NCBI GenBank assembly: GCA_028280485.1
Contig: JANQLS010000148.1
Coordinates: forward strand, 17,002 to 81,001
Length of the DNA stretch: 64,000 bases
Direction: 5' to 3'
From: Planctomycetota bacterium
Lineage (GTDB): Bacteria; Planctomycetota; UBA8108; JACQVS01
The notes below the pieces were generated by a model. That model worked only from the letters and a program-made list of their open reading frames with translations. It was not told where the DNA came from and searched no databases. Positions 13,471 through 52,007 of the stretch are shown piece by piece. Both the position numbers and the translations under genes were made by a program. The first letter of the stretch is position 1. Each line of letters starts with the position of its first letter.

Positions 13471-14895
13471 ATGAGAACATTAATTTGGTTTCGAAGAGAC
13501 CTCCGAATCAAGGACAATCCCGCCCTCACTGAGGCTTGTCGACGAAGTAGCGATGGAGTTATCGCTCTTTACCTCATCTGTTCGAAACAATGGAAGCTTC
13601 ACGGAGACTCACCCCGTAAAATCCATTTTTGGCTTCGAGGTCTTCGCGAACTCTCCCAATCACTCAGCGAAAAGAACATTCCACTACTGATTAAAAATTG
13701 CGATAGCTATTCAGATGTTCCATCCACCATTCTGAAAATCACTGAGAAGCACAAGGTCTCTGGAGTTTACTTCAACAAAGAATATGAGATTAACGAAAAG
13801 ATCCGAGACAGTAAGGTCATTCAAACACTGACTCAAAACCAGATCGAATGCCAAGACTTCACCGATCGGGTGATTGTCGAACCGGGTAAACTCCTCACGG
13901 CGAATCATTCTCCATACTCCGTTTTTACCCCTTTCAAAAACTCATGGTTAAAAACAGTTGAAGCGAGTTGGAGCCCACCTTTAAAAGCTCCGAGGGCTCA
14001 GTCTAAAATCAGCCTCACTCCTGATCCCATACCTGAAACGTGTTCTCATTATCAATTTGAAAACGTACGAGAGGACCTCTGGCCTGCAGGTGAGGAGGAA
14101 GCTCAGAAAAGGTTGAAGCGATTTGTTAAGAATAAAGCCCTTCGTTATCAATCCGACCGAGATATTCCATCAGTGCCGGGAACGAGTTTACTTTCCCCTT
14201 ACTTAGCCGCAGGTTTTATATCTCCCCGCCAAGCAGTAGCCAGTTTATTGAAAAATGAAGCTAAGATATTCAAGGAAAGAGATACGGGGCCCGCAACCTG
14301 GCTAAACGAAATTATTTGGAGGGAATTTTATACTCATGTCTTGGAACTCGTGCCTCGAGTTTCGAAGAATCGCCCGTTCCAACTCAAAACTGAAAATCTC
14401 AAGTGGAGCACTTCTATAAAAGATCTAGAACGCTGGCAAAGGGGGAAGACCGGATATCCCATAGTAGATGCCGCACAGCGCCAGTTATTACAAACGGGCT
14501 GGATGCACAATCGATTACGCATGATCTCTGCCATGTTTTTAACGAAACACCTTTTGATCGATTGGCGTGAAGGAGAAAAACACTTTATGTCCCACCTGAT
14601 CGATGGAGACTTAGCCGCAAATAATGGAGGTTGGCAATGGTCAGCTTCGACAGGAACCGATGCCGCCCCTTATTTCCGTATTTTTAATCCGAGCTCCCAA
14701 AGCTCAAGATTTGATCCTCAGGCTAAATTCATACTTCGATTTTGTCCTGAGTTAGAGGGGCTACCTCTAAAACAAATTCATCAACCAGAACTCATATCCA
14801 CCGCTGAACTCAGAAAGAGAAACTACCCCGAAAGAATCGTTGATCATAAAGAAGCGAGAGAACGAGCGATTCAGGCCTTCAAGGATTTAAAGTAG
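13471..14895 (+). CDS. phrB: Deoxyribodipyrimidine (CPD) photolyase, class I
   Basis: 474 aa; MRTLIWFRRDLRIKDNPAL; FAD-binding core TGYPIVDAAQRQLLQTGWMHNRLRMISAMFLTKHLLIDWREGEKHFMSHLIDGDLAANNGGWQW. Confidence 0.95.
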   Translation: MRTLIWFRRDLRIKDNPALTEACRRSSDGVIALYLICSKQWKLHGDSPRKIHFWLRGLRELSQSLSEKNIPLLIKNCDSYSDVPSTILKITEKHKVSGVYFNKEYEINEKIRDSKVIQTLTQNQIECQDFTDRVIVEPGKLLTANHSPYSVFTPFKNSWLKTVEASWSPPLKAPRAQSKISLTPDPIPETCSHYQFENVREDLWPAGEEEAQKRLKRFVKNKALRYQSDRDIPSVPGTSLLSPYLAAGFISPRQAVASLLKNEAKIFKERDTGPATWLNEIIWREFYTHVLELVPRVSKNRPFQLKTENLKWSTSIKDLERWQRGKTGYPIVDAAQRQLLQTGWMHNRLRMISAMFLTKHLLIDWREGEKHFMSHLIDGDLAANNGGWQWSASTGTDAAPYFRIFNPSSQSSRFDPQAKFILRFCPELEGLPLKQIHQPELISTAELRKRNYPERIVDHKEARERAIQAFKDLK

Positions 14896-15130
14896 TCGGC
14901 TCAAGGTAGTCCGCAGGCTCCGCGTGCGGATTGTATTCGACTCACGGGGTGAACCGAACCGCTCCAATCGAACGATTTAAAAACAAACATCATCCTTATA
15001 TTCATTCTTTTTCGTATCATGATAAAAATTAATCTTTACCAGTTTTCTCTCATACCATCCCGGCTCACGGGGTGAGCCGACTACTGTACCCGCACCCGGC
15101 GGGTGCGGACTACCTTGAGCCGACTACTTT
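14891..15130. mobile_element. MITE-like element, family A: terminal inverted repeats TTAAAGTAGTCGGCTCA...TGAGCCGACTACTTTA around an AT-rich core
   Basis: Left arm agtagtcggctcaaggtagtccgcaggctccgcgtgcgga; right arm ggctcacggggtgagccgactact...gtgcggactaccttgagccgactacttt in inverted orientation. It fills the whole phrB-garD spacer, and the phrB stop TAG (14893-14895) lies inside the left terminus. Confidence 0.6.
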
Positions 15131-16669
15131 ATGTTCCTACAACTCCATCCCAACGACAACGTTCGAGTTGCTACTGCTTCGCTCAAGCAAGGCGAATGTA
15201 TCGCTGATCAATTCGAACTTCTCAGTCCCATCCCCCAAGGCCATAAATTCGCCCATCATCCAATCCAAAAAGGAGATTGGGTCTACAAGTTCGGTTCAGC
15301 CATCGGAAAAGCGACTCAAGCCATCCAGCAAGGCGAATGGGTCCACACCCACAATCTCAGTGCCGAAAAATTTGATCTTCCACCACGATCTGATTTCTCA
15401 TCCCAAGAGAGTCAGATAAAAAAGGACTTCTCCTCAAAATCCTTTCGAGGCTTCCTTCGTCCCGATGGTCGAGTCGGAACACGCAATTATTTAGCCATCG
15501 GCTCCACTGTCAATTGCTCAGCCTTTGTCGTCAAAGAAGCCGTTCGTAAAGCCCAAGAGAAGTACAAAGGAAAACTCGAGAACGTTGACGGCCTTTTTCC
15601 AATCACCCATCCCCGAGGTTGTGGCATCGATCGAGGGAGCTCTTCTCACCACCTCATGAATCGAGCTCTCGCCGGTGTACTCCACCACCCCAATGTGGGA
15701 GCGAGATTGCTCGTCGGTTTGGGTTGTGAAAAAAATCAGGCCGAAGCCTTCATAGAAGAACATAAGTTAGTTCAGATTGAACTGCCCAACGCTTCCTCTC
15801 GAACAAACTCAATTCCCCTCAAAGTGACGATTCAAGATGAAGGCGGCACGGAAAAAACGATTCAAACGATTTTAGAGCACGTCGACCGCCTTCTTCCGAT
15901 CATCGACCCATTCCAGCGCTCAGAACAATCCATCGAACATTTAACTCTGGGAACTCAATGTGGAGGCTCCGACGGATTTAGCGGCATCACCGCCAATCCT
16001 CTCATCGGAACCGTGAGCGATTTTATCGTGACTTCAGGGGGAAAGTCCGTATTCGGAGAAACCTCTGAAACTTTCGGTGCATCTGAAATCATCACTCAAC
16101 GAGCTTCGACTGATGAGGTAGCCAAAAAGTATCTCAAAATCCTCCATGATTACCGTAAATACCTTCAATCCTTTGGCACGGACTTCCATGCTAATACGGC
16201 GGTCGGTAATTTTATGGGAGGGATCTCAACAATCCCTGAAAAGGCCTTAGGTTCGGTGATGAAATCGGGACAAGCTCCCCTCAATGCTGTTTATGATTAC
16301 GCAGATTCCATCGAAGAAGCGGGCTTAGGGTTTATGAACACCCCGGCCTATGATCCGGCCTCCTGCACTGCAATGCACGCCGGTGGAGTCAACATCGGAT
16401 TATTCTCTACGGGAAGAGGAAGTTGCTATGGCTCGAAGCCAGTTCCATGGATCAAGATCGCGAGCAACTCAGATTTATTCCATCGACTGAATCGCGATAT
16501 GGATTTTAATGCGGGCCGGCTCCTTGAAAGTGAAAAGGATCTTCCCAACTTAGGTGAAGAGTTGCTCGACTATCTGATTGAAGTAGCCAGCGGGAAACAA
16601 ACCTGGAGTGAAGTTCACGGTTACGGCGATGATGAGTTCGTCCTTTGGGATACGGGGCCGATGACGTAA
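15131..16669 (+). CDS. garD: Galactarate dehydratase / altronate dehydratase family enzyme (SAF N-domain + UxaA/GarD C-domain)
   Basis: 512 aa; LQLHPNDNVRVATASL...PQGHKFA...GEWVHTHNL N-terminal SAF domain, C-terminal dehydratase domain. The KdgD-like neighbour favours GarD over UxaA. Confidence 0.8.
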   Translation: MFLQLHPNDNVRVATASLKQGECIADQFELLSPIPQGHKFAHHPIQKGDWVYKFGSAIGKATQAIQQGEWVHTHNLSAEKFDLPPRSDFSSQESQIKKDFSSKSFRGFLRPDGRVGTRNYLAIGSTVNCSAFVVKEAVRKAQEKYKGKLENVDGLFPITHPRGCGIDRGSSSHHLMNRALAGVLHHPNVGARLLVGLGCEKNQAEAFIEEHKLVQIELPNASSRTNSIPLKVTIQDEGGTEKTIQTILEHVDRLLPIIDPFQRSEQSIEHLTLGTQCGGSDGFSGITANPLIGTVSDFIVTSGGKSVFGETSETFGASEIITQRASTDEVAKKYLKILHDYRKYLQSFGTDFHANTAVGNFMGGISTIPEKALGSVMKSGQAPLNAVYDYADSIEEAGLGFMNTPAYDPASCTAMHAGGVNIGLFSTGRGSCYGSKPVPWIKIASNSDLFHRLNRDMDFNAGRLLESEKDLPNLGEELLDYLIEVASGKQTWSEVHGYGDDEFVLWDTGPMT

Positions 16670-16715: not shown

Positions 16716-17630
16716 ATGACTACACTTCTTCTACCAGAAGATCTTTCAACCGTTCATTTAGTTCCTCTCACCCCATTTACTCCCTCGAGTGAGGTGAACC
16801 TCGAAACGCATTCGATTCACATTCAACGGTTGCACCAACAGGGAATCGAAGTTTTCTTACCGGCAGCGGCCACCAGTGGGTTTTATCAACTCACTGCCAA
16901 CGAGATCAGTTCCATTGTCAAAGCCACCGTTGAAGCAACTCACGGCCAAGCCAAGGTTTTTGCTCCTCTCGGCTTAAATTTGCTGGAGGCAATTCAAATC
17001 GGGAAGCAGGCAAAAGAAGATGGAGCGACGGGAATCATGTTCATGCCCGCGACGGCTCCTTACTTAAGCGATGAAGGATTGAAAGCCTATTACATCAAGG
17101 TCATGGAAGAAGTGGGCTTACCCACATTGATCTACAAAAAGGCTGCGCTCCCCAGTAACAACTTACTTTTGATTCTTTCGGACCACAACCAACTGGTGGG
17201 AATCAAATACGCCTCTGCCGACATCGAAGCCTTCCACCAAGTCGTTCAACAAGATCAAGGACGCTTAGCTTGGCTCTGTGGGTTAGCGGAGCGGTATGCG
17301 AACGCTTTTATGGCTCAAGGCGCGGGCGGCTATACCAGTGGCGCAGGCAATCTTGCGCCCAAAACCACATTAGCCCTCCACAATGCCCTTCAAGCGGGGG
17401 ATCTTAAAGAAGCGCGTCGGCTTCAAGAGATCTTACTCCCCATCGAACGCTACCGAGGTCGAGCGGGTGATAGTTACAACGTGAGCATGCTTCAGTATTC
17501 GATGAGGCTTTTGGATGAACCCTTAGACTATGGTTCACCGCGCTTGCCCATGCGAGAACTAACTCCAGAAGAGAAGATTGAAATCGAAGAGACGTTGAAG
17601 CCGATTTTGGAATTTGAAAGGAAATTGTAG
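16716..17630 (+). CDS. kdgD: DHDPS/NAL-family lyase, most similar to 5-dehydro-4-deoxyglucarate dehydratase
   Basis: 304 aa; pattern ...GIKYASADIE...GGYTSGAGNLAP...LPIERYRGRAGDSYNVSMLQ...GSPRLPMRELTPEE parallels the KdgD C-terminal region; 46 nt downstream of garD. Confidence 0.65.
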   Translation: MTTLLLPEDLSTVHLVPLTPFTPSSEVNLETHSIHIQRLHQQGIEVFLPAAATSGFYQLTANEISSIVKATVEATHGQAKVFAPLGLNLLEAIQIGKQAKEDGATGIMFMPATAPYLSDEGLKAYYIKVMEEVGLPTLIYKKAALPSNNLLLILSDHNQLVGIKYASADIEAFHQVVQQDQGRLAWLCGLAERYANAFMAQGAGGYTSGAGNLAPKTTLALHNALQAGDLKEARRLQEILLPIERYRGRAGDSYNVSMLQYSMRLLDEPLDYGSPRLPMRELTPEEKIEIEETLKPILEFERKL

Positions 17631-17717
17631 TCATTCTCGCCAGAGATTGGGTCAACAAGCTTTAAAGTCATTACCACCCAAATTCTGGCGAATTTGGCTA
17701 CACCTATAATTTTAAAA

Positions 17718-20700
17718 TTAAATTGTCTCTCTCAAAAATGCCAACAAATCGGCCATATCCCCCAATGACATCGATTCATCCAATTCCTCAGGCATAAACG
17801 ATCTACCCTCGGTCTCCATGTTTTGAATGTCTGCTTTTAATAAGGTAATGGATTTCCCGCTAGTGTCCTTCAAATGAATACTGGTTGCGGTCTCTTCTTT
17901 TATTAATCCCTTGTACAAAATTCCACCTTTGGTAAGCACTGTATAGTCATGAAAACGAGGATCGACCGATCGATTAGGGTCCAAGATCGATTGGAGCAAG
18001 GCCTGGGGAGATTTATCCGTTAATGCTCGTAGATCAGGGCCGATGGTCGTCCCGATGTTCCCGATCTGATGGCAAGTTGAACAATTCTTTTTAAAGACAT
18101 GCGCGCCTTCCTCCCCGCTACCATTGAGAGTCACTGAAGGCCAGTAAGCAAGAACCTTGTTTCCACCGTACGACTTTGGCTGTTTTGAAAATAAAGCTTT
18201 AGCCTTCTGAGCTATTTTTTTATCTTTCCAACGTTCAAGGATTTGACGCTGGGCGAGACTGAGGTCATGAATGGACAATTGTTGATTCTCAAGCGCGGAA
18301 AGAAAGCTCTGCGTCCAATTTCCGTTTTGGGAAATGATCCTAAATAATGCGGCTTGCTGATCGGGCAAACTCTTAGCGTAGAGGCTTATGACGTCTTCAG
18401 CTTGCCCCTTCAATTGACTTAATTTCGAAGCCACTGCCAATTGGAACTCTAATTCTGAACTTTCTAGTAACCATTTCGAAAGCAGCACAACATCTCGCCC
18501 CTTGCTATGAGGAAGGGCACCCATAAGCTTCACCAAGGCAATTCGAGTGTTTAAGGAAACCTTTCCTTCCTCAATGATCTCAGGCACTCTCAGAAGGAAC
18601 TTATCCAACGCTTGCTTTATAGCTTTGAACTTGGGATCGTCCTTAGTTAAGCGATCCAACGAACTTTGGGAATGATTCAGCTTAAAAAAAATAGATTCTA
18701 AAGCTTGGAGACGCCAGAGGTCTTTCGAAGGATCCAGCTCTCCCTCGACCAGAGCTGCAATTAACTCTCGAACAACCCCCCTATTGTTTGACTTAATAGC
18801 CGTCATGAATAGCGGAGAAAACCAAGCTTCAAATACCGGCCCTTTTTCCTGAACAACGGTCCTTGAAACTCCTTTTAGATGGGGAAGGAGTGAACTCGCT
18901 ATCGCAGAACGAAGCCATGGATTTTGATAATGAAGAACGGCTAACCGCCCTAAGGCTTCAGAACATTTTGAAGATTTAAATTCTCCGAGAGTACAAGCGA
19001 GTTGTAAGATCAACTTCAAATCTGAATGGGAGACGAGCCTTACAAGCTCGTCTTGAAGACCAGCATGCTCAGGAAATTTTTCGCTCATCCTCAAAACTTC
19101 AACCACAAATTGGGCTTCTTCATAGTTGAGAGCCGCAACCAGTTCCTCAGGCTTAAGAAGGCCCCAGCCATCTCTTAAAGACAAAAGATGAAGATCCATT
19201 AGAGCATTGTGCTCATCGACGATCTCCATACTGTCGGGCTTTTTAAGGAGAAGTGTTCGGTGAGCTAAATCTCGAAGGATGCCATTACGACTCCCCAAGA
19301 GCGACACGAGATTGCTCGGAGAACCTTTTGAAAAATCCGGTATTCGGGGAGATGGACCTTCTTTAGGAAGAACTCGATAAATTCTTCCTCGCTCTTCACC
19401 CGATCGATAAAACGGCTTGAGTTCTTCTTTACCATGAGGAGGTAACCAATCAGGATGCTCGATCATATAACGATACATATCGACGATATAGAGGGCTCCG
19501 TCGGGGCCTGTTCGCGTCATCACCGGGCGGCACCAACGATCTTCACTTGCAAAAAAATCGTGCCCGTTTTTTCCGGGAACTCGCTTCGCTTTAAAACTGA
19601 CCCCGGATGAAGTGAGAACAGTATGCTGAACAATGCCGTGAAAAGGATCACAAGTGAAAGCATGAGTACGGCCATCCTTTTCGAATAAAAGGCGGTCTCG
19701 ATAAATGCTCGGGCCACAAGCTGAAGTAAATTGGGTCGCATCGGCAAAACTGTGATAACGCTTCTGAGGAAACTTAGCGGGATAGAGCTTGGAGCTGACC
19801 TTGCGAATGAGATCTTTGGCCGAAGGAGTGGGAAGATAGGGATTCCGTTTCGCGTACCGATCCTTCAAGACGTAATACCAAAGAGGACGTGAATTTTGAA
19901 CTCCGAACCACCGGTTCCAATCATCGCGCACTCGACCGAATTGAGAGGGACCGGACTCCGGTTGCATCTCCCAAGTGACGGGATTGAAGCGAATGTCACG
20001 ACTCCCGATATGAACCTTTTTACCAGTAAGAACAGCTTCGATTTGGCGTTTTGCTCCGTACCCGGCGTGATGCCCTCCACTAGCGCAATAGATCCAATTA
20101 TCTAAACCCCATCGAAGGCCGTTGACTCGAAGTTGTTGGTTCCCAGGTAAAAAACCATCGTAGAGAATGACCTCACGATCGGCCTTTCCATCATCGTTAT
20201 GATCGGGAAGGTAAATGATATGAGGCGCAGTCGTCACTAAAACACCTCGATCCCAAACCATCAAACCGTTAGGAAAACTGAGCCCTTCAGCGTAGAGCAC
20301 CGAACGATCGTAACGACCATCGCGATCATCATCCGTTAGAATCCGAATGCGCCCTCCTGGTTCGTCGCCTCCCTTCATACCATCAGGATAGTCCGCCATT
20401 TCGGCGACCCACAATCGACCTTTGAGATCCCAATCGATCGCTACGGGATCTTTTACAAGGGGTTCTTGCGCTACCAACTCTAAACGAAATTGAGGATCGA
20501 TGTGAGTGATTCGAAGAGTCTCTTCAGGACTCTTCGGTAGGGAATCCAGCTTGAGAGTTTTCTCTGAGTTCGAATTATTGGCTGACTTGTTTCCCATTCC
20601 CGAAGCTTTGAAGTGTTCGGCAGCCTCCACCGGGCTTAAAGCTCGATCGAACAGGGAAATTTCATCGAGTAAGCCTTCCAAGCCGGGTTGGTTCTTATGG

Positions 20701-22667
20701 TCTCCTCCTAACATCAACTTCGCCGTTGGGTCGGGTTTTAATTTTACAGATCCTTCTAAATCCAATTTTCCATTGAGGAAAACTCGAACAAAGTTCTTAT
20801 CGCGAGTGAATACTAAATGATTCCAGCCCTGACCGAAGGTTTGCTTCCCTTGAAGCGATCCGATGGATAGTTTCCCTAAATTTTCACTTCCACCATCGAC
20901 GATGGTTAAGAGATCCGAACCCCAGCGAAAAATTTCTCCTCGAACTTTTCGGTTATCTTTGATGACCTTATTAGAAAACCATAGCTCAACGGAATATTGA
21001 TCTTTGATTTGCTGAGCTTGAAACTCGAGCCAACCATCGATGAGATGCAAGCAACGATTGACATGTTCATTTGAGAATGCCGGAGATTGAGGACCACGTA
21101 AGTAAAAGGCGATTCTTGGCTTTACTTTTAGTTCGTTTTTATTCCCACTCGAATCACTAACGGATTCACCACGGAATTCTTCCAATCGCCAATAAGCTAT
21201 AGGTTTCTTTGACAGGATCAAAGAGGGGTAAGCTCCCTTCGAACGAACGGGAGCCCTCTCATTCTTACCGCTGACTTTTTCCAACAACTTGACAACGCTT
21301 CTCACGATGATGGGCTCCGCCTCGATCGCTAAACCCGCCGTACGGGCGGGCCAAGTATTGTACCCACCTAAGGCGTGTTGCTCGGGTGGCGGAATGTAAC
21401 CGGCAGCCCCATTTGCCAATGAAAGGTTAAAAGTCGGTTGCAGGGGACTCCGCATTTTGAGTTCAAGACCCGTTAAAGCGTAGACTTCACAAGGTATGGC
21501 GGTGATTCCCATCGAACCAATTCGAGCGGCCTGCAACACGACTTCTTCTTTTGGATTGTCTCTCAAAAAGAAAGCTTGCTCAGCGTAAACTTGAGGCCGA
21601 TTTTTGGGACGCACGTTAGGATCAGGCCAAGTCTTCTTGGCCCACTCCAATCTCTTTTCGTCGGGAAGACGACGATTAAAAGTGATTCGCTGCTCTTCGA
21701 TCCCGATAGGAACATTTTTAAAAAAGCGAATTTGCTTGTAAGCTTTCAATGATGATTCAACGAGCTCTCGAGTGTATTTGTCGATCGGAGGATTAACTCT
21801 CGGTTTCGAATAATCCCCTCTCCATAAATCTCCACTCGTCCCCTGAGAAAGAATCCCCACAAATCCCTGAGTTTCTTTCCCGAGCTCTTTTTCAATTTGA
21901 TTCGCATAACGCCCGAAGTAATCCGCTGAGAAGCCACCACCGAAGCCGAAGTAGTGCATCGAAAAGTTACCCATAAAAAATATGGGCTTTCCTTCATAGT
22001 CTCTAGCAGCCAGGATCGAAAATCCCGCATCCTCAGGTCCCGAAGGACCGACGTAATGAGGATTTTGATAGCCCGGATGCATCATCGCTTGCACGGTGCG
22101 TTCGCCGAAAGGATCCAAGTCAGGGCGTCCCACTCTACGAATCCAACGTCGATTAGCCGTGTGGTCGGGAGCTTGAAATACAGTATGCCCGACCTCAGCT
22201 GGGCGAACTCGTTTCGATGCTTCGATGATGCTTTTTGCAATCCAACCGGGTAAGACTTTGGCGTACTCAGGATCGATTCGAGTTCCTAAGCAATAATTCA
22301 TCGCGCTCGGAGCAGTATGGGTGTGAGTTGCCGAAATTAAAACGCGGTTAGGTTCTAAGCCGATCTCAGAATGAACTCTTCGCTTCACCTCATCGCAAAG
22401 AGTCCGCGGAAGCATGCAAGAATCAACAATCGCGATCGCTAATTGTTGCTTATCATTCTTAAAGTACGCCACTCGGGAATAAAGTGGGTCAGCAACTCGG
22501 TTCGTGACTCTTTCTAAAAATCCACCATTCTGGCGCGCGGGCAAGACCTTTGGGCTAATATCTTGCGAGTAGGCTCCGACTTGAATGACTCGATTGTCCT
22601 CCTGACTTAGAAGGACTGACGAGGAGCACAGAAACAGACAGATGATGATGGTCTTTTTAATGAACAT
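17718..22667 (-). CDS. Giant secreted multidomain protein: neutral-ceramidase-like N-domain + LamG/ConA-like + membrane-bound-dehydrogenase-type beta-propeller + HEAT repeats + C-terminal cytochrome c
   Basis: 1649 aa; signal peptide; SATHTHTAPSAMN (ceramidase-like); LamG-like block; PVAIDWDLKGRLWVAEMADYPDG propeller; long helical repeat region; CSTCHQIGNIG heme motif near the C-terminus. Confidence 0.6.
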   Translation of the reverse strand: MFIKKTIIICLFLCSSSVLLSQEDNRVIQVGAYSQDISPKVLPARQNGGFLERVTNRVADPLYSRVAYFKNDKQQLAIAIVDSCMLPRTLCDEVKRRVHSEIGLEPNRVLISATHTHTAPSAMNYCLGTRIDPEYAKVLPGWIAKSIIEASKRVRPAEVGHTVFQAPDHTANRRWIRRVGRPDLDPFGERTVQAMMHPGYQNPHYVGPSGPEDAGFSILAARDYEGKPIFFMGNFSMHYFGFGGGFSADYFGRYANQIEKELGKETQGFVGILSQGTSGDLWRGDYSKPRVNPPIDKYTRELVESSLKAYKQIRFFKNVPIGIEEQRITFNRRLPDEKRLEWAKKTWPDPNVRPKNRPQVYAEQAFFLRDNPKEEVVLQAARIGSMGITAIPCEVYALTGLELKMRSPLQPTFNLSLANGAAGYIPPPEQHALGGYNTWPARTAGLAIEAEPIIVRSVVKLLEKVSGKNERAPVRSKGAYPSLILSKKPIAYWRLEEFRGESVSDSSGNKNELKVKPRIAFYLRGPQSPAFSNEHVNRCLHLIDGWLEFQAQQIKDQYSVELWFSNKVIKDNRKVRGEIFRWGSDLLTIVDGGSENLGKLSIGSLQGKQTFGQGWNHLVFTRDKNFVRVFLNGKLDLEGSVKLKPDPTAKLMLGGDHKNQPGLEGLLDEISLFDRALSPVEAAEHFKASGMGNKSANNSNSEKTLKLDSLPKSPEETLRITHIDPQFRLELVAQEPLVKDPVAIDWDLKGRLWVAEMADYPDGMKGGDEPGGRIRILTDDDRDGRYDRSVLYAEGLSFPNGLMVWDRGVLVTTAPHIIYLPDHNDDGKADREVILYDGFLPGNQQLRVNGLRWGLDNWIYCASGGHHAGYGAKRQIEAVLTGKKVHIGSRDIRFNPVTWEMQPESGPSQFGRVRDDWNRWFGVQNSRPLWYYVLKDRYAKRNPYLPTPSAKDLIRKVSSKLYPAKFPQKRYHSFADATQFTSACGPSIYRDRLLFEKDGRTHAFTCDPFHGIVQHTVLTSSGVSFKAKRVPGKNGHDFFASEDRWCRPVMTRTGPDGALYIVDMYRYMIEHPDWLPPHGKEELKPFYRSGEERGRIYRVLPKEGPSPRIPDFSKGSPSNLVSLLGSRNGILRDLAHRTLLLKKPDSMEIVDEHNALMDLHLLSLRDGWGLLKPEELVAALNYEEAQFVVEVLRMSEKFPEHAGLQDELVRLVSHSDLKLILQLACTLGEFKSSKCSEALGRLAVLHYQNPWLRSAIASSLLPHLKGVSRTVVQEKGPVFEAWFSPLFMTAIKSNNRGVVRELIAALVEGELDPSKDLWRLQALESIFFKLNHSQSSLDRLTKDDPKFKAIKQALDKFLLRVPEIIEEGKVSLNTRIALVKLMGALPHSKGRDVVLLSKWLLESSELEFQLAVASKLSQLKGQAEDVISLYAKSLPDQQAALFRIISQNGNWTQSFLSALENQQLSIHDLSLAQRQILERWKDKKIAQKAKALFSKQPKSYGGNKVLAYWPSVTLNGSGEEGAHVFKKNCSTCHQIGNIGTTIGPDLRALTDKSPQALLQSILDPNRSVDPRFHDYTVLTKGGILYKGLIKEETATSIHLKDTSGKSITLLKADIQNMETEGRSFMPEELDESMSLGDMADLLAFLRETI

Positions 22668-26654: not shown

Positions 26655-26672
26655 TTTTAAATTCAGTTAAAT

Positions 26673-26830
26673 AGTAGTCGGCTCAATGTAGTCCGCACGC
26701 TCTGCGTGCGGATTGTAGTCGGCTCACCCCGTGAGCCGGAAGAGCACAGCGTTACAAATCCTGGCTTAATTATGACTGATTTGCGAAGTGACTCATACCG
26801 TCCCGGCTCACGGGGTGAGCCGACTACTTT
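26673..26830. mobile_element. MITE-like element, family A (158 bp)
   Basis: agtagtcggctcaatgtagtccgcacgctctgcgtgcgga...cccggctcacggggtgagccgactacttt; inverted termini. The TAG stop of the minus-strand 995-aa gene (26824-26826) lies inside the right terminus. Confidence 0.6.
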
Positions 26831-29811
26831 AATTCTAAATCCGCCATATAAATCGCGGTAATTCGTTTCCCCTGCGCATCTTTCTCGTGCGAAGAGTACC
26901 AAGATACAACGGCTTTCCCTTCTCCGAGGTCGATGAATCCAGGATACGAATTATCTCCTGCACTCGGCAATTCGACAAAGGGATGAAGCTCACCCCGAAC
27001 AAACCACTGTAAGACGGTCTTCGGCCCTCGGGGAGTATTCTTTCGACCACCTACTACCCAACGATTTCCCCACTGGGTGATCAATGGTCCTCCAATATAT
27101 TCCTTAAGATCACGGCGTTCCCACTCTCGGTAGGGAGGCTTGGCAGTTAAAAATTCAGCCGCACTACGAGCCCTTCTCCCGATCCCCACGATGGTACCAT
27201 CGGGCAAGAATTGAAAGGCCGTTTCATCGCCATGAGTATCTTGGAAAAAACCTCTCTTTTTCCAAATCAAACCATCCTCACTTTCAAGGATGACAGATTT
27301 CACGTCAACTCCCTCCCCTTTCGGCCCCACTCTAAAACTAAATTTTCTCCGCCCACATAAGTATGCCGTACCGTTGAAAGTATTAGCCTTCCAAATGTAG
27401 TGTCCGAAAGTACCTTCTAACAAGGTGGGTGGACTCCAATTTTTGGCATCGGGAGTCCAGACGCAATAACCTAAATGTTCATTCAAATCAAAACGGGTTC
27501 TCTTCGTTCCCGGTTTCCCGTAATACCAAGTTCCTGTGTAAACGAAAAGCTTCCCCTTAAAGGAAAGAAAGTGAGGATCGCGAGTGTCTCGCTCGGGTAC
27601 TGAAAACTGGTGAACTGGACTCCAAGATTTTAAATCAGCACTTTTCAAAATAATGATACTGGCTGTGGGTTGAACTCCGTGACCATCCGGGCAACTCCTA
27701 AATGCCAAATAATAATTATTTTGATAAAGGATCAGATCCGTAAAGGCGTTGTGTTCTCCGTTGTGAAAGACTCGACGAATATTGGCGACCTTAACCTTCG
27801 GTAGATCTTTAGCTGAAAGCTTTTCGTGTCGGACGACTCGAAAACCGATCTTTGAAAGCTCTAAGGTGGGATTGCTGAAGAAACGCCCTGCAGATTGACG
27901 ATTGTTCCCTAAAAACCAAGCCCCGGAACGCAAGCCTCTAAAAATCTTTCCTACACGCGCTTCATTCCATACCCAAACATTGTTATTTACGTTTTCGAGA
28001 CCGTAGGCCGTCACCCAATTCTTAGGGTGACTCATCAAGTTGTATCCCCCGAGGAGTCGTGGGACGAACAATTGATATTTATATTTTTTATTGGAAGGAT
28101 CACCGAGGAAATAAACAGCCTTGTACCATTCGTTTTCACTTGGAAGCGAATAACGAGCGTGAACGTTTCGAGAACTCACTTGAGTCCCTTGTATTTTATA
28201 AGCTCCATCTTCAGTCGTAGCGCTGGATTGCTCGCCCTGAGGCTTTCCATTATGTAACCAGTTCGCATAACGTGCTGCATCGTGAAAGGCAACAAACGTA
28301 ACCGGAAGTTGGGCTTTGGTGTTTTTTACATAGTATTGATATTCTCCCGAGTCCCCCATTCTGAGAATGCCCCCCTGATTTGTACCCATTCTGAGATTGT
28401 ATAAACCGTTCGGGTCGCTCTTACCGACAGCGTTGAGAAAAAAAGCATATTCAGTGTTAGTGATCTGCCGCTTGGAGATGTTGAAGCAATAAGTAACATC
28501 ACCAAACACACCACGACCTTCATTATTTCGATCGGGAGAATTACCGGCATCCCCGACTCGTACAAACTCAATCGCCTGATCTTGGGGAGAGGAATGAGCT
28601 TCTAATGCTGTTTTGATGGGGATCGATCGAGAATCCGAAACGAGTTCTCGGGGTAGATCGTAAGGGGTCTTCCAAAACCGTTCTGGATTTGGAGGCGGTT
28701 TTCCAAACCAATGCCATTGAGCAAAATCTAATTGGGCCTTCCAATCTTCATCGTTAGAAGCATGCTTACCTCCGCGATAATAAAGACCATTCTTTTTGGG
28801 CACGCCATAAAGTTCAAAGACTCTGTGAGCCGCCACCGAAGTGGCTTGAGTTCCTTCTGGATTGGCGAATTCGTCATCCACAGATTCCGTACACAACAAC
28901 AGTCGAGGAGCGACCAAGGCTTTAAGAAAATGTTGATCGAAAGGTAGGCGGTCTTCCTTTTCATCAAACCACTGAATGCGTTCGTGATACCAGTGAGGCT
29001 TATCGTTCATTCCCAAGGATTCAGCTCCCGGCCCCAGCACCCGGTAAGATCCTGCACCACCAGCCCCGGAACCATTGGGAACGACCAAGGTAAACCTTTC
29101 ATCCAAGGCCCCCGCTAAAAGTGCCATCTTTCCTCCGCGAGAATGCCCAGTGATACCGATACGTTTGAGATCCACATCCTGCCGCGTTTCTAGATAATCG
29201 ATCACTCGCATGCCGCCCCACGCCCAAACCGCCAGAGTTTCCCAATCATAGTCCGAATACTTTTGCTGGGCTGGGCCTTTCACTCCCTTTCGATCTGGAT
29301 CTAAATCGTGCCGAGCGTATTCGATGAACATGAAACCCGCATCGAGAAACATCGGCACTTGACGAGTTCCTCCGAGGTGACCTTCCTCTCGAATGATCAC
29401 GGGAAGCTTTCCCTCATTTTTGGGTCGATAGATCACGATACGCATTTCGAGAGGGCGCTGAGATCCGATCTTCAGCAGAATCCAATCCTCCGTTCCCTTG
29501 CCACTTTTATGAGGGACCGATTTAATCAAAGTTCCTGTGACTTGATCTGGACGAGGAGGAATCCGACCGTACTGGTAGTAAAGGATGATCTCTTTTAGGG
29601 TATTACGCCGTTTTTCCCAAGCCTCTTGAGTGCGGATGGATTCACCCGCCTCACCCATTAAGACATCGGGTAGGTTTGGAATCGAAGGTAAATCCTCATT
29701 CGATGCTGGGGGTTGCCATACCTTCTCCTCACTCGCCGTTGAAAGTGTGGTGATAGAACTACAGAGAAAGATGAACAAGAGGCTTAGTATATAAGACTTC
29801 AACGAGGACAT
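26824..29811 (-). CDS. Secreted three-module protein: CE15-like (glucuronoyl-esterase-like) alpha/beta hydrolase + FGE/SUMF1-like domain + BNR/sialidase-like beta-propeller
   Basis: 995 aa; signal peptide; GITGHSRGGKMALLAGALD (GxSRxG esterase motif); central ...RYSLPSENEWYKA...GAWFL... FGE-sulfatase-type domain; C-terminal propeller with repeated W/D-rich blades. Confidence 0.55.
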   Translation of the reverse strand: MSSLKSYILSLLFIFLCSSITTLSTASEEKVWQPPASNEDLPSIPNLPDVLMGEAGESIRTQEAWEKRRNTLKEIILYYQYGRIPPRPDQVTGTLIKSVPHKSGKGTEDWILLKIGSQRPLEMRIVIYRPKNEGKLPVIIREEGHLGGTRQVPMFLDAGFMFIEYARHDLDPDRKGVKGPAQQKYSDYDWETLAVWAWGGMRVIDYLETRQDVDLKRIGITGHSRGGKMALLAGALDERFTLVVPNGSGAGGAGSYRVLGPGAESLGMNDKPHWYHERIQWFDEKEDRLPFDQHFLKALVAPRLLLCTESVDDEFANPEGTQATSVAAHRVFELYGVPKKNGLYYRGGKHASNDEDWKAQLDFAQWHWFGKPPPNPERFWKTPYDLPRELVSDSRSIPIKTALEAHSSPQDQAIEFVRVGDAGNSPDRNNEGRGVFGDVTYCFNISKRQITNTEYAFFLNAVGKSDPNGLYNLRMGTNQGGILRMGDSGEYQYYVKNTKAQLPVTFVAFHDAARYANWLHNGKPQGEQSSATTEDGAYKIQGTQVSSRNVHARYSLPSENEWYKAVYFLGDPSNKKYKYQLFVPRLLGGYNLMSHPKNWVTAYGLENVNNNVWVWNEARVGKIFRGLRSGAWFLGNNRQSAGRFFSNPTLELSKIGFRVVRHEKLSAKDLPKVKVANIRRVFHNGEHNAFTDLILYQNNYYLAFRSCPDGHGVQPTASIIILKSADLKSWSPVHQFSVPERDTRDPHFLSFKGKLFVYTGTWYYGKPGTKRTRFDLNEHLGYCVWTPDAKNWSPPTLLEGTFGHYIWKANTFNGTAYLCGRRKFSFRVGPKGEGVDVKSVILESEDGLIWKKRGFFQDTHGDETAFQFLPDGTIVGIGRRARSAAEFLTAKPPYREWERRDLKEYIGGPLITQWGNRWVVGGRKNTPRGPKTVLQWFVRGELHPFVELPSAGDNSYPGFIDLGEGKAVVSWYSSHEKDAQGKRITAIYMADLELK

Positions 29812-30344: not shown

Positions 30345-30454
30345 AGGCTAACGAACCAAATTCTGGCGCATAGCAAAAGACGCCAGCCATTTGGTGATTA
30401 CACTTTAAAATTTCTTGATCCAAATTCTGGCGAATTTGGCTACGGGCGAATTCT

Positions 30455-37495: not shown

Positions 37496-37554
37496 CCCAA
37501 AATCCATTCCTCATTTCAAGCGCGAAGCGTAAGCGAGTGTTTTCCCGCATCCCC

Positions 37555-37944
37555 CCAGGGTGACGCTTCACTAAGGTAGTCCGCAGGCTCCGCCTGCAGC
37601 CCTCCCGAGGGACGGTTAGCATCCCTCAACATTCGCTTACTCCTGATCGAGTCCATCATTTGGGTTCTCAACAGCTAGTACCGCCCTTACAGGGCTCAAC
37701 ATATTCTCACATTCATCCCAGGGTGACGCTTCGCTAAGGTAGTCCGCAGGCTCCGCATGCGGCCCTCCCGAGGGACGGCTAGCATCCCTCAACATTCGCT
37801 GACTCCTGATCGAGCCCATCCTTTGGGTTCTAAACAGCTAGTACCGCCCTTACAGGGCTCAACATAATCTCACATTCATCCTGGGCGACGCTTCGCTCTG
37901 CCCTGGGCTATAAAATTAGGGCTATCAGCCCTTGGTGGTTTGGG
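37555..37944. repeat. Tandem direct repeat: 163-bp unit x2 (37555-37717, 37718-37880) plus a partial third copy
   Basis: Units are near-identical (ccagggtgacgcttc[a/g]ctaaggtagtccgcaggctccgc...cgcccttacagggctcaacat...cacattcatc). The partial copy continues as ctgggcgacgcttcgctctgccctgggctat..., which also occurs at 55420-55487. Confidence 0.8.
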
Positions 37945-43842: not shown

Positions 43843-44168
43843 CCTGAAGGAAAAATTATCACGACTATTGTGAATTGTTAGGAATTGAAATTACTGATTC
43901 GTAAAAAAGAAATCACCCGCCATTCAAGCCCGAAGCTTTAGCGAGGGATAAAAGGCTAGTAAAAATGCTGAAATTCCCAGAAAGATTAAACGGAAATACA
44001 AAATTCAGCACTCCTCCAATTTTACCCACCATAACAGCAAGAGTTGACTCTCCATTTAAAAGATTGAAAGATTTCCTAGAAATTCAACTCAATTAATAGA
44101 CTGTGAGAGTGGATCGAGAGCGATTCTCCGTGGTATAAAAAAGGCTTCAACCCCATTGGAGAAATATC

Positions 44169-45559: not shown

Positions 45560-46834
45560 TTGACGATGAACTGGATTCTAACTCTCATTCTTCTGTTCAC
45601 ATCCTTCGTGAACTTAAGTGTTGCGGGTGAACCTCAACCCACTAATGCGCCGAAAAAGGTCAATCGAGATTGGCCTTTTTGGCGAGGCCCCAATCGTAAT
45701 GGAAAAGTTGCCTCTCAAAACATTCCTCGAAAGTGGAGCGAAACTGAAAACGTTGCGTGGAAGATCAAGATTGCCGGCCGCGGTCACTCTTCACCGTGCG
45801 TGATTCAGAATTACGTCTTTCTCTCTACTGCCGATGAGAAAACCAAAGTTGAAACGGCTTTGGCTTTTGATCGTAAAACGGGAAACACACTTTGGGAAAA
45901 GGTACTGACGAAGGGTAAATTTGACAGCCCCAGTCAAGCTCGACGCAGTTGGTCGAATTGCTCACCGGCCTCGGATGGAGAGCGCGTCATCTTTCTTTCT
46001 TCGGGTCACTCTCGAATTTTGGCTACAGCATTCGATTTCAAAGGCAATCGGCTCTGGAAGAAAACAGTCGGCGATTTCGTTTCCCATCACGGTTACTCGG
46101 CCTCCCCCACGATCTACAAAGATTTAGTGCTCATCGCCGCTGACCACAAAGGTGGAGGTTACCTCGCAGGATTAAATCGCAAAACGGGTGATATCGTTTG
46201 GAAAACTCCTCGACCCAAAGAACCATCTTACGTCTCCCCGGCCATCTATCCCATTCACGGTAAGGACCAACTTGTGATCTCAGGCTGTGATCTCTTAGCC
46301 GGATACGATCCTCAATCGGGCCAAGAATTGTGGTCTTACAAAGCCGTGACCACTGAGTGCGTGGGAACAGTGGTCGCATACGGAGACCTCATTTACGCCA
46401 GTGGCGGGTACCCCAAACATCTCACTGTTTGTGCTGAAGCTAAAAAGGGCGGGAAAGTTCTCTGGACGAAACCCCTCAGGACGTACGTCCCATCGATGCT
46501 CATTCACGAAGGGCATCTTTATACCGTCACCGATCGTGGGATCGCTTACTGTTGGGACGCTAAAACGGGTAAAGAAAAGTGGAAGGGACGCCTCAAAGGA
46601 ACATTTATCGCTTCGCCCGTTCTCATCGGAGACACGATCATCGTTCCGAACGAACAAGGAACGACCTTCCTCTTTAAAGCGACTCCTAAAGAATTAAAAG
46701 TGGAAACCGAAAACCAACTCGGTAACCAAATCTTCGCAACCCCCGTCGTCTGCGGTGGTCAAATCTTCCTGAGAAGCACTCACGAAGGACCTAACGGGAA
46801 GCAAGAGTATCTTTATTGTTTAGAGAAGAAATAG
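45560..46834 (+). CDS. Secreted PQQ-like beta-propeller repeat protein
   Basis: 424 aa; signal peptide; WPFWRGPNRNG...WKIKIAGRGHSSP; paralog of 7714..8982; 20 nt downstream of the DUF1080 gene. Confidence 0.75.
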   Translation: MTMNWILTLILLFTSFVNLSVAGEPQPTNAPKKVNRDWPFWRGPNRNGKVASQNIPRKWSETENVAWKIKIAGRGHSSPCVIQNYVFLSTADEKTKVETALAFDRKTGNTLWEKVLTKGKFDSPSQARRSWSNCSPASDGERVIFLSSGHSRILATAFDFKGNRLWKKTVGDFVSHHGYSASPTIYKDLVLIAADHKGGGYLAGLNRKTGDIVWKTPRPKEPSYVSPAIYPIHGKDQLVISGCDLLAGYDPQSGQELWSYKAVTTECVGTVVAYGDLIYASGGYPKHLTVCAEAKKGGKVLWTKPLRTYVPSMLIHEGHLYTVTDRGIAYCWDAKTGKEKWKGRLKGTFIASPVLIGDTIIVPNEQGTTFLFKATPKELKVETENQLGNQIFATPVVCGGQIFLRSTHEGPNGKQEYLYCLEKK

Positions 46835-46851: not shown

Positions 46852-46927
46852 GTAGCAAAAGACGCCAGTCTTTTGGGGAATGCGCTTCAAATACGTTCCT
46901 CGCCAAAAGACTGGCGTCTTTTGCTAC
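46852..46927. repeat. Perfect 25-bp inverted repeat hairpin (repeat family C) between convergent genes; probable bidirectional terminator
   Basis: GTAGCAAAAGACGCCAGTCTTTTGG (46852-46876) ... CCAAAAGACTGGCGTCTTTTGCTAC (46903-46927). The sulfatase stop (46924-46926, reading TAG on the minus strand) lies within the GTAGC end of the right arm. Confidence 0.7.
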
Positions 46928-48225
46928 AATTCGATCCCCAATCCTTTAAACGCCTCCAATAACAACAGCTTTGCTCCCATCGCTTGCTTAGAAAGTTTTC
47001 CCTTCAAAGCATTTTTCTCATCGGGATCGACGTTCATATCAAAGAACTTGCCGCTTTTATAAAACTTGAAGCGCTGAGTACGAACCCAACTTTTATTTTT
47101 ATGTTCAGCGTAAGCAAATCGCTTGGGCCCGGGAACTCCTTTTAACAATCTTGAAGCGAAGCTCACCCCGTCGATCTTTCCCATCCCTTGAGGATCTGCA
47201 CCAGCTAAGACACAGAAGGTCGAGTAAAGATCACTGACATCCACGAGATCTTCCACCACCTGCTTGGGCTTAATTTTCGCCGGCCAACTCACGAGCCAAG
47301 GAACTCGAGTTCCCCCATCGGTAAGCTTACCCTTGCCTCCCGGGATCTTCTTATCCCCTTTCATCGAGAAGACGGGGTCACGAATATACTTCCCATTTTT
47401 CGCCCGAATGATGGATCGCTGGGCCGTGCCGTTATCACCAACGAAGAGGACGAGGGTATTGTCTCGCAGTCCCGATTCTTTCAACGCCTTCTGTAATTTC
47501 CCCACCATGCGATCCATGTCGTGAGCCATCTCTTTGTAGTTGAGATAGCGATCCAAACCGGGAGGATACTCAACCGGTTTTTTAAGGTCATCCGTGACGT
47601 CGTGACAGAGCGCCATCGAATAAAAGGCAAAGAAAGGTTTTTTACGATCCGCCTTCATGAAATCGATGAGGAAATCGGTATAGACATCGGGTCCGTAAGC
47701 CTTCTCTAAGCCTTTTCGAATTTTCCCGTTTTGCCAAATTAAGGGATTGTGAAACCGAGGACCTTCGTGCCATCCAAAAAGACAAGATTCATCAAATCCC
47801 AATCGGTGGGGATGCTTGGGATCTTCTTTTAATAAAGTAAGTTGCCACTTCCCCGCCACCGCCGTTCGGTAACCCGCTTTCTTTAATTGCTGAGCGATCG
47901 TTCGTGACTCTTCCTTTTTGGGATAACTCCCCCACTTAGCTTTTTCCATTCGAAACGGATACCGCCCGCTCAAGATCGAAACTCGTGTCGGATGACAAAC
48001 GGCCATACTGTATCCATGGTTGAAACGAATTCCGCTTTCCGCCAGAGCATCGAGCTGGGGTGTGGGGTAAGAAGTTCCTCCGTAGCACCCTAAGACTTCT
48101 TGGCCAACATCATCGGCAAGAATCAAAAGGATATTGGGACGCGGGGCTTCACTTTTGGGCTCTAAACTTAAAACAGCGTGTTCGACAACAAGGAAACTTA
48201 GGATGATGAACAATAAGTTTTTCAT
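46924..48225 (-). CDS. Formylglycine-dependent sulfatase (secreted)
   Basis: 433 aa; signal peptide; ILADDVGQEVLGCYG; CHPTRVSILSGRYP; GKWQL. Confidence 0.9.
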   Translation of the reverse strand: MKNLLFIILSFLVVEHAVLSLEPKSEAPRPNILLILADDVGQEVLGCYGGTSYPTPQLDALAESGIRFNHGYSMAVCHPTRVSILSGRYPFRMEKAKWGSYPKKEESRTIAQQLKKAGYRTAVAGKWQLTLLKEDPKHPHRLGFDESCLFGWHEGPRFHNPLIWQNGKIRKGLEKAYGPDVYTDFLIDFMKADRKKPFFAFYSMALCHDVTDDLKKPVEYPPGLDRYLNYKEMAHDMDRMVGKLQKALKESGLRDNTLVLFVGDNGTAQRSIIRAKNGKYIRDPVFSMKGDKKIPGGKGKLTDGGTRVPWLVSWPAKIKPKQVVEDLVDVSDLYSTFCVLAGADPQGMGKIDGVSFASRLLKGVPGPKRFAYAEHKNKSWVRTQRFKFYKSGKFFDMNVDPDEKNALKGKLSKQAMGAKLLLLEAFKGLGIEL

Positions 48226-48336
48226 AATTCTTCTGAATCAATTCGTAGCCAAATTCGCCAGAATTTGGGGATTGAGAAACCATAAAGCGTATCGCTACCA
48301 AAGACTGGCGTCTTTGGCTACAGGTCATCGGCGATC

Positions 48337-49710
48337 TTATTTCGACTTCGACCTCAAAATATATTTAAAGTCGATGGCGTGCTTTTCAAAATCCGGAGGC
48401 AACTTGGGATGACCCGCGATGAGGGGAGGAGTGAATTTCGAGTTAAAAAGAAAGACTCCAATTTTGCTCGCCTTCACATCATTGTCGTGAGTGGCGATAT
48501 GACAACCCCACGTCCCATCGAATCGAACAGGAGTGAGAGCTTCATCGTAAGAAGGTTTCGTCCACCAATGCCCGCCGACAAAGACTAAAGTGGCGACCTG
48601 TACCTCTCGAGGGCGAGCATGAAGAACCATCCCTTCGATCTTGCCTTTTTTCCCATACTTAGGGTACTGAGTAATCTTCAATCTTGTTTTACCCGCGCCC
48701 TGAATTAATTTCTTGGCTTGGTAATAATTCTTATCGAGCCCCTTATAACTCAGCGGAAAGAAATTTGCCTTCAGAACGCCCTTCTCGTTCCAAAGTCCCC
48801 AGTGAGCTCCCTGCTCTCCTTCTTTGGATTTAGCCTTCCAGGCTTCATCGTAAGAAGTAAACCAAAAGCTAGGCACTTCATTGGCATAAGCCCAATTTTG
48901 AAATTCTTTAAAGAAGGTTTTAACGTTTTTCAAACTCGGAATGGATTCATCGTGTTTTTCTCCACCGCTCGGCCATCCCGTTTCAGAAATCCAAACGGGC
49001 TTACCGTGAGCGATGGCTTTGACTCGCTGGTGTCGATAATGGAATCGTGAAATGGAATGTTCAATGGGCACTCCTTCCCAATAGGGGTAGGAATTGTAGA
49101 GAACGATATCGCACTCATTCACGATCAGGGGGTTTTTGATCAAAGAGAGGTAAATATCGGCTGTCGTCACCGGAACATTTGGCAAGGCTTGCTTCACCCG
49201 TTTGATGTAAACTCGATGCTCGACGGGAGTCACATCTTCACGGTATAAAACTTCACTACCGACGATCGCTAAATCGACAAGCCCCTTCTTGCCCAATTGA
49301 ATTAAGGCTTGAATCTCAGCCTCATTCGAAGCTCGGTTTTCTCCGATCCAAGCCCCGGCGGCGAGTTTGAGTTTATACTTCTTCGCCAACATCCCCATCT
49401 TTTGCATCCCACCGCTCACGCTGAAAACTCGAACCCATCGCGTGTAAGGAGCGATCATTTTCAGGCGAGCCTCTACCTGCTCGTCAGAGATTTTATCTCC
49501 CGGTTTTTGACCGGGACCGATTGGACTAAAGTTGAGTCCTAGAAGTTTCCCATCGTTTTTCCTGAAATCCACCTTCAATGGGGTTTCTTTTCCTTCCAAT
49601 GGTAGGAAGGTCAAAACAGAACAAGTGAGAATAAGAAAGGTCAATAATCGCATTAGATTTCGATTTAGAATTGAAAATTTAGTAAAACCAAATTCTACTA
49701 TTGAGCTCAA
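48337..49710 (-). CDS. Glycoside hydrolase family 17-like (beta-1,3-glucanase-type) protein with C-terminal extension
   Basis: 457 aa; signal peptide; LLGLNFSPIG...; catalytic-nucleophile block VWISETGWPSGG typical of GH17 (xTETGWPS). Confidence 0.65.
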   Translation of the reverse strand: MSSIVEFGFTKFSILNRNLMRLLTFLILTCSVLTFLPLEGKETPLKVDFRKNDGKLLGLNFSPIGPGQKPGDKISDEQVEARLKMIAPYTRWVRVFSVSGGMQKMGMLAKKYKLKLAAGAWIGENRASNEAEIQALIQLGKKGLVDLAIVGSEVLYREDVTPVEHRVYIKRVKQALPNVPVTTADIYLSLIKNPLIVNECDIVLYNSYPYWEGVPIEHSISRFHYRHQRVKAIAHGKPVWISETGWPSGGEKHDESIPSLKNVKTFFKEFQNWAYANEVPSFWFTSYDEAWKAKSKEGEQGAHWGLWNEKGVLKANFFPLSYKGLDKNYYQAKKLIQGAGKTRLKITQYPKYGKKGKIEGMVLHARPREVQVATLVFVGGHWWTKPSYDEALTPVRFDGTWGCHIATHDNDVKASKIGVFLFNSKFTPPLIAGHPKLPPDFEKHAIDFKYILRSKSK

Positions 49711-50498: not shown

Positions 50499-50657
50499 CA
50501 CTTGAATCCGAAGCCGGTCTTTGATTTTGATCTTCCTTGAGTGCTAAAATTTACAGTTCAAATTCTCTCTTAACCTGATGGAGCAAAAGGCTCCAGCCTT
50601 TTGGCCATTGCGCTTTATAGTTCTCTTTCCCAAATTCTGGTGAATTTGGCTACAAAA

Positions 50658-51848: not shown

Positions 51849-52007
51849 ACCGAAGGAATTTCTTGTATCCCTCGCTAAAGCTTCGGGCTTGAGGGGCACG
51901 AATCGTTTTCAGTGTTTAATTTGTAATAAGGGATTTCACTTATTCCATCTATAAATTAGTATTGAAATCACCAACCTCCCAAGCCCGAAGCTTTAGCGAG
52001 GGATAAT
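51849..52007. mobile_element. MITE-like element, family D: inverted CCCTCGCTAAAGCTTCGGGCTTG arms around an AT-rich core
   Basis: tccctcgctaaagcttcgggcttgagg ... cctcccaagcccgaagctttagcgagggata; related copies at 786-938, 43925-43950 and 53509-53571. Confidence 0.55.

Follow-up and report, generated by a model that had tools for sequence, protein, structure and literature searches.

Why should the stop codons of three unrelated genes lie within the same kind of repeat? The question arises from a 64-kb stretch of contig JANQLS010000148.1 (Planctomycetota assembly GCA_028280485.1), here called the window and meaning the whole of the DNA that was analysed, in which phrB, a gene for a 995-aa esterase/FGE protein and a PQQ gene all have AAG TAG as their last two codons, the TAG belonging to a repeat end. 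The original prediction regarded these repeats as a family of miniature inverted-repeat transposable elements (MITEs) whose insertion had either replaced the native C-termini or was directed to sites beside stop codons. With a probability that we put at roughly 85%, they are instead GTAG-tagged repetitive extragenic palindromes (REPs), present as singletons, as head-to-head (HH, REPIN-like) doublets and as clusters in a Pirellulaceae-like planctomycete, and presumably spread by a REP-associated tyrosine transposase (RAYT). What is new is the addition of members to the GTAG-REPs, in an uncultured Pirellulaceae-like genome; the repeat class and its behaviour in providing TAG stops are already known.

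Stop codons within repeat heads

The 3′ end of phrB (13471-14895) is GAT TTA AAG TAG, then TCGGCTCA, and the TAG (14893-14895, plus strand) is bases 2-4 of the outer repeat head GTAGTCGGCTCA. The gene for the 995-aa protein (26824-29811, minus strand) ends GAA TTA AAG TAG, then TCGGCTCACCCCGTGAGCCGG, its stop (26824-26826, minus strand) being the TAG of an inverted head of the type termed A1 below. The PQQ gene (53870-55177) ends TCA AAG TAG, then TCCGCTCACTCCGTGAGCGGG, and the TAG at 55175-55177 belongs to a singleton REP, GTAGTCCGCTCACTCCGTGAGCGGG, at 55174-55199 on the plus strand. The predicted AAG TAG endings with TAG in the repeat head are therefore present in all three genes, and the general picture of small, repeated, palindrome-ended non-coding elements placed exactly at gene ends, with TAG as the stop, is correct. 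So is the observation that the garD ATG at 15131 abuts the other terminus of the 14891-15130 element: CTACTTT immediately precedes this ATG, which is the earliest possible in-frame start, and the SAF domain begins at residue 9.

The overlaps extend beyond the three genes first reported: a second repeat family (family B) also supplies TAG stops. The stop of a DHDPS-family gene (16716-17630) at 17628-17630 is in the left head of one family B doublet, and that of a minus-strand sulfatase gene (46924-48225) at 46924-46926 is in the right head of another. Five genes in the window thus have a stop overlapping a head, three of the family A type and two of family B. A sixth case lies outside it, in another planctomycete metagenome-assembled genome (MAG; locus L003), where a 419-aa open reading frame (ORF) for an FGE-sulfatase, stopping 5 residues past the end of its domain, is terminated by the TAG of an A1 REP. 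In all six cases the base preceding the TAG is G.

Architecture of the family A repeats

Two units make up family A. The A1 unit is GTAGTCGGCTCAC-CCC-GTGAGCCG (the stem can also be written CGGCTCAC-CCC-GTGAGCCG), and the A2 unit is GTAGTCCGCAcGCTCyGCgTGCGGA, with stem sequence CCGCACGCTCTGCGTGCGG. The window has 13 occurrences of their GTAGTCSGC core where 0.31 would be expected, and none of 100 shuffled sequences reached 13.

Repeat and fold analysis resolves the element behind phrB as a composite cluster in HH arrangement (14888-15131) that fills the entire phrB-garD spacer. Its left arm consists of a half A1 head, GTAGTCGGCTCA (14892-14903), an A2 (14906-14930) and a decayed A1, GTATTCGACTCACGGGGTGAACCG (about 14933-14958); a unique AT-rich spacer follows; and the inverted right arm consists of an A1 (15060-15084), an A2 (15089-15113) and a half A1 (15116-15127). 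The outermost 42 nt of the arms (14888-14929 and 15090-15131) are 90% complementary, and the cluster folds as RNA at −101.5 kcal/mol (z = −9.2). The same analysis gives a second cluster (26670-26831) between two minus-strand genes, the 995-aa esterase/FGE gene and a PQQ_2 gene, with a half A1 (26674-26685), an A2 (26688-26713), an A1 (26715-26739), a unique spacer and an inverted A1 (26803-26827). Here the arms at 26715-26739 and 26803-26827 are complementary over all 25 nt, and the z-score of the fold is −11.2. The inverted termini predicted for both larger elements are accordingly real.

Over their leftmost 66 nt the two composites show 86% identity. The spacers at their centres have no relation to one another, and only REP modules are common to both, so that what is repeated is the module rather than a MITE body. 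Family A hairpins also stand without partner at 55174, 37576 and 37739. The terminus recorded earlier at 55173-55200 is one of these: the repeat is there and its TAG is the stop of the PQQ gene, but it is a lone hairpin with no paired terminus. With the spacers unrelated, hairpins occurring alone and no consistent target-site duplication, the idea of a single MITE family is not sustained. The outer A heads have a common TAAAG before them (AAAG before the TAG), a prefix that the inner heads lack.

The other two lone hairpins, both of A2 type (37576-37599 and 37739-37762, plus strand), were found by repeat analysis to lie inside a tandem duplication. The duplicated unit, of 163 bp (37554-37879, 94% identity), carries besides the REP a TAGTACCGCCCTTACAGGGC hairpin and further short palindromes; a hairpin related to TAGTACCGCCCTTACAGGGC is at 55385-55405.

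Reading the A1 and A2 hairpins as intrinsic terminators was considered and rejected: they are followed by GAAG, ATTG or GTAT and have no U-run. A canonical terminator hairpin with U-run is found at about 55232-55270, 33 nt downstream of the PQQ REP, so that this REP is probably transcribed and part of the 3′ untranslated region.

GTAG-headed families in the window

At least five GTAG-REP families occur together, with about 33 GTAG heads in the 64 kb distributed over more than 12 intergenic regions; all REP clusters are intergenic. In all units of families A, B, C and E the GTAG is at the end of the hairpin and unpaired, or has decayed to GTAT or GGAG. Stems are of 8-10 bp and loops of 3-4 nt. 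Single units fold at −14 to −18 kcal/mol, with z-scores of −4.4 to −5.3 relative to shuffles, and doublets reach −8.6 to −12.3. Organisation ranges from singletons (55174, 37576) through six B-type HH doublets to the A clusters. An Rfam search gave no family matching the REPs.

The family B unit is (T)GTAGC-CAAAnnC-GCCA-GnnTTTGG. Its six outward-facing doublets, each about 78 nt, are alignable over their full length, with covariation in the stems (AAGAC/GTCTT against ATTC/GAAT) and partly conserved spacers. Two are between convergent genes, where doublets fit tightly in spacers of 87-89 nt. In the first (17627-17701; z = −8.6) the left TAG is the DHDPS-family stop and the right head is 16 nt from the TAA of the gene at 17718-22667; in the second (46852-46927; z = −12.3) the right TAG is the sulfatase stop and the left head is 17 nt past the stop of the gene at 45560-46834. 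Of the remaining four, the doublet at 30371-30443 has no stop-codon overlap, that at 48245-48321 has one head 15 nt from the TAA of 48337-49710, that at 50581-50653 has a left head decayed to GGAG, and that at 56261-56347, which has an extra head, starts 16 nt past the TAA of 55774-56244. Family C, with unit GTAGGCTCGCTCCGCGAGTC, is represented by a pair, TAGTAGTAGGCTCGCTCCGCGAGTCG (55270-55642), whose 36-nt arms are perfectly complementary and 305 nt apart, and the family E unit is GTAGCGCCACC....

Position of the heads relative to stop codons

A REP body directly follows 5 of the 11 TAG stops and none of the 33 TAA or TGA stops (Fisher p = 4e-4), nor does one begin anywhere from 0 to 3 nt past any of these 33. 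The probability of at least five exact overlaps is about 1e-8 when heads are free to take any non-coding position; it is about 1e-5 when every head that faces a gene end can take any position from 0 to 30 nt from the stop. There are 11 heads facing gene 3′ ends, 10 of them at either 0 or 15-18 nt from the stop. The spacing is bimodal: five heads are at 0 nt, and four of family B (17701, 46852, 48321 and 56261) are at 15-17 nt; the sequences between the stop and these four heads are unrelated. The bias of REP placement to the exact position of the stop is real, but it is an already published property of this repeat class. Of the predicted preference for sites adjacent to stops, then, the positional bias stands, and either targeting or selection may be its cause.

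The 15-17 nt spacing is near the 15-nt threshold reported for ribosome stalling by REPs in Escherichia coli. One further candidate, GTAGTCCGC (60361-60369), directly follows the CGG TAG of a TPR gene (60370-61752, minus strand) and was not counted as an overlap, as it has no hairpin; it may be a REP remnant or may be there by chance. On the opposite strand this region encodes ADY in the C-terminal tail of a DegT protein, which extends 9 residues past the alignment, against 5 in the orthologue of locus L015 (401 and 398 aa).

C-termini of the overlapping genes

If insertion had rewritten gene ends, the proteins should differ from their orthologues there. The phrB protein ends in AFKDLK, and its best 120 homologues end in AFKxL plus 0-2 residues, with K final in 16 of the 120, a comparison made at the protein level only. 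A relative 82% identical (locus L001) has the identical phrB/REP junction, TTAAAGTAGTCGACTCA, so the arrangement is old. The esterase ends in YMADLELK; its only two full-length orthologues end in YLADLELME and YLADLDLEP, both have TGA as the stop, and neither has a REP. The PQQ protein ends in LWAVGSK and dozens of its orthologues in AIG(x)K; a REP-free orthologue of 58% identity (locus L016) ends at the DNA level in TCC AAG TAG, and one of 73% identity (locus L015) in AAG TGA. For the sulfatase of 46924-48225, which ends in GLGIEL, homologue ends agree within one residue.

All four proteins compared thus end 0-2 residues from the ends of their orthologues. Their C-termini are native in length, so the REP TAG coincides with the native stop, and no more than the final 1-2 residues could be repeat-derived. 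Replacement of native C-termini is not supported: the TAG in the REP head is shown to be a functional stop, with the proteins unaltered to within 1-2 residues.

The comparison with locus L001 (2140-2480 against window 15119-15140) also shows both outer REP ends and TTTATGTTCC kept and garD absent; the DNA that follows is unrelated and has a tRNA-like 3′ fragment. The difference looks like a rearrangement or an insertion breakpoint right at the REP end. Nested insertion, in which newer units come to stand on the 5′ side of an existing head and that head then decays to GTAT, was considered from the same comparison and set aside as speculation, the alignment being ambiguous.

How heads come to coincide with stops

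In other bacteria the RAYT transposase, a Y1/HUH enzyme, recognises GTAG together with the hairpin, and by extension the REPs here would spread as single-stranded DNA. REPs build up just 3′ of genes and their obligatory head holds a TAG, for which reason a REP flush against an ORF terminates it. A likely consequence, to judge from the E. coli work, is that the stop is placed directly before a stable mRNA hairpin, which could shield the 3′ end and delay the ribosome at termination. This leaves the precision of the overlap to be explained, and several accounts can be weighed.

Selection, with no targeting, is a possible account that we hold tentatively and at less than even odds. REPs would land near gene ends, the insertions that spare the protein would survive, and a hairpin flush with the stop would be favoured for compactness or for its effect on termination or mRNA stability. 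In E. coli, ribosomes are stalled and expression is lowered by REPs that lie 15 nt or less from a stop (Liang et al. 2015, as cited in PMC12306157), in keeping with such selection; so are the two-peaked spacing of 0 and 15-17 nt and the snug fit of doublets in the convergent spacers. Against it, exact substitution of a native stop with no change in length needs a precise event every time; numbers are small, and in planctomycetes such a function is putative.

REPs might also integrate specifically at pre-existing (G)TAG stops or at (A)AAG|TAG-like sites, so that the stop is native and the REP was added behind it. Such integration is compatible with the GTAG-REP identification, but we consider it rather doubtful. 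It accords with the native C-termini, with the AAG TAG of the REP-free 58% PQQ orthologue, with the G before TAG in every overlap, with the AAAG common to the outer and not the inner A heads, and with the lack of REP bodies behind TAA and TGA. On the other side, the GTAG in E. coli belongs to the REP, is guide-like and is bound by the RAYT, and the enzyme cuts at CT, not behind the GTAG (PMC3479197); TGA is the stop in the nearest orthologues of the esterase and PQQ genes that have no REP; and the sample is of five or six events only. The sequence before the outer A heads (TAAAG) and the L016 ending lean towards a site preference, while these TGA stops and the place of the GTAG within the E. 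coli REP lean the other way.

A stronger form, which appears improbable, is that REP spread is aimed at the stop itself, either by landing behind (A)AG-TAG or by a portable GTAG replacing the stop, with genome-wide control of termination and expression through a hairpin in the ribosome footprint. If true, it would explain a large share of TAG usage, the 5 of 11 TAG stops here.

A classical MITE is very unlikely. On this view a DDE insertion sequence would have given rise by deletion to an element that is bounded by the terminal inverted repeats TTAAAGTAGTCGGCTCA, duplicates TA or TTAA at its target and, once inserted in gene 3′ ends, rewrote the C-termini. The outer ends are indeed inverted, with T/A-rich flanks (TTTAAA|GTAG ... 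CTAC|TTTA), and the left 66 nt of the composites are alike. But the central bodies are unrelated and the module occurs alone at three sites; the termini are themselves assembled from repeated GTAG-hairpin units; the flanks (GGATTTAAA / TTTATGTTC and CAGTTAAATA / TTTAATTCT) contain no exact direct repeat; no transposase with ends matching the element termini (TAAAGTAGTCGGCTCA) was seen; and the C-termini of the four compared proteins are not rewritten.

Pure coincidence, TAG-bearing repeats happening to stand beside genes that already ended in K-TAG, is scarcely credible: final K is common among PQQ orthologues and LK ends 16 of 120 phrB orthologues, but five exact overlaps among about 33 heads and the contrast of TAG with other stops give the p values above, overlaps of this kind are seen in family B and in a further MAG as well, and the same tendency is in the literature (PMC3733652). 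The original prediction held that repeat-free orthologues with the same endings would make the coincidence trivial; such orthologues do exist, for PQQ at the DNA level (L016) and for phrB among proteins only, but the overlap is too frequent to be trivial.

Host, distribution and spread

The genes of the window are typical of planctomycetes (PSCyt/PSD/DUF1501 and many sulfatases), the best named relatives of phrB are from Rubripirellula and Mariniblastus at about 53% identity, and the host is an uncultured Pirellulaceae-like MAG of about 46% GC. The confinement of the A1 hairpin to Planctomycetes MAGs among the species genomes scanned (see below) agrees with this.

Several observations weigh against the identification as GTAG-REPs. 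Pfam and motif searches of the window and of all the loci compared with it found no RAYT/Y1 transposase gene. Y1_Tnp (RAYT, Y1/HUH, PF01797) had no match in 38 window ORFs, the other four large ORFs have orthologues of other families (loci L015 and L018), and a scan of every reading frame in the window and the loci showed no YxxxNP/HUH motif. Mobility is argued from the multi-copy distribution and by analogy only. The exact A1 hairpin is also rare elsewhere: with one genome taken for each of 185,579 species it occurs in seven Planctomycetes MAG loci only, none of them from the source genome, with loops TCC, GCC or ACC, and in metagenomes in 3 short contigs only, at 1-2 copies per locus over these 7 genome and 3 metagenome loci. 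The composite head GTAGTCGGCTCAANGTAGTCCGC had no matches in the metagenome scan. Extension of the window by way of the genes at its ends added 1.9 kb on one side only. Lastly, the TAAAG extension is outside the canonical definition of a REP and hints at a target or at an extended unit.

For annotation, the TAG in a repeat head is to be taken as a real stop, and the proteins as full length, in REP-rich planctomycete genomes; repeat-dense intergenic regions such as these should not be taken for novel MITEs. The coincidence of head and stop, together with the spacings of 0 and about 16 nt, constitutes a small natural data set on REP site choice and stop-flush hairpins outside E. coli.

Other repeats in the window

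The spacer between the PQQ and MbnB genes (55178-56447) is 1,270 bp long, against 118 bp in the syntenic 73% relative (L015 4163-4280), and contains REPs of three families, an ORF resembling a type II secretion pseudopilin (55774-56244) and a match to the Rfam Acido-Lenti-1 RNA (RF01687; 55426-55480, plus strand; 40.5 bits, gathering score 37). A 42-nt, 88%-identical copy of this match at 37880-37921 has no Rfam match at E<=1. The motif matching Acido-Lenti-1 may itself be a dispersed repeat here.

Also dispersed is a family of palindromes (CTAGCGCTTCGGGCTAG / CGCTAAAGCTTCGGGCTTG) that lack a GTAG head, have a UUCG-like loop and often form inverted pairs. Its sites are 790-932, 43909-43951, 51862-52006 and 53486-53708, and it is also present in the 82% relative (L001 2100-2135). 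The sulfatase gene at 52071-53465 has the tandem stop TAA TAG, directly followed by a hairpin, GGGTGAAATCATCACCC (53463-53486); this TAG-headed hairpin is unique in the window.

Comparison with known repeat systems

Correia-type bacterial MITEs are small inverted-repeat elements at gene borders that can give start or stop signals, and have a conserved body, terminal inverted repeats of DDE type and a TA duplication. The elements described here show none of these last three features. REPINs are reportedly REP doublets that form hairpins and are replicated as a unit, a description attributed to Bertels and Rainey in 2011. The B doublets resemble them, as inverted REPs with a short spacer that form one long hairpin of about 78 nt, six copies of which occur in the 64 kb, and they too would be replicated as units; the A composites, with their unrelated spacers, do not.

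With the REP/BIME-RAYT system of E. coli (BIME, bacterial interspersed mosaic element) the common feature is GTAG-headed REPs close to stops, though E. coli REPs, unlike the units here, are bulged hairpins of 35-40 nt. The E. coli RAYT (TnpA_REP) binds GTAG in a base-specific manner, and the GTAG is needed for cleavage, which is at CT dinucleotides (PMC3479197).

The closest counterpart is the GTAG-REP superfamily, short stem-loops of 20-40 bp tagged by GTAG at one end and divided into 24 families (Di Nocera, De Gregorio & Rocco 2013, PMC3733652). They are found as singletons, as HH, tail-to-tail (TT) or head-to-tail (HT) dimers and as groups, mostly downstream of ORFs, in many cases with under 20 bp between unit and stop, and their GTAG termini often provide the TAG stop. 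The repeats of the window agree in the unpaired GTAG, the short loop and the stem (8-10 bp, within the 6-13 bp described); in being extragenic and mainly 3′ of ORFs, between unidirectional or convergent genes; and in the presence of several families in one genome as singletons, HH dimers and clusters. HH dimers, with GTAG outward, are what was at first seen as MITE termini. The arms composed of three heads and the common TAAAG extension have no counterpart in the published description. For A1 and A2 the likeness is one of anatomy.

For family B it extends to sequence. Rhodopirellula baltica has several coexisting GTAG-REP families, among them GTAG-20 and GTAG-21, and 'a plethora' of tyrosine transposase genes (PMC3733652). 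Intragenic copies of its GTAG-21 REPs encode the peptides SRIRQEF, RILANPA and VTGFARIR (PMC3733652); translation of family B in three frames gives SQIRQNL, TQILANLA and VAKFARIW. The two sets of peptides match, which makes family B a relative of GTAG-21.

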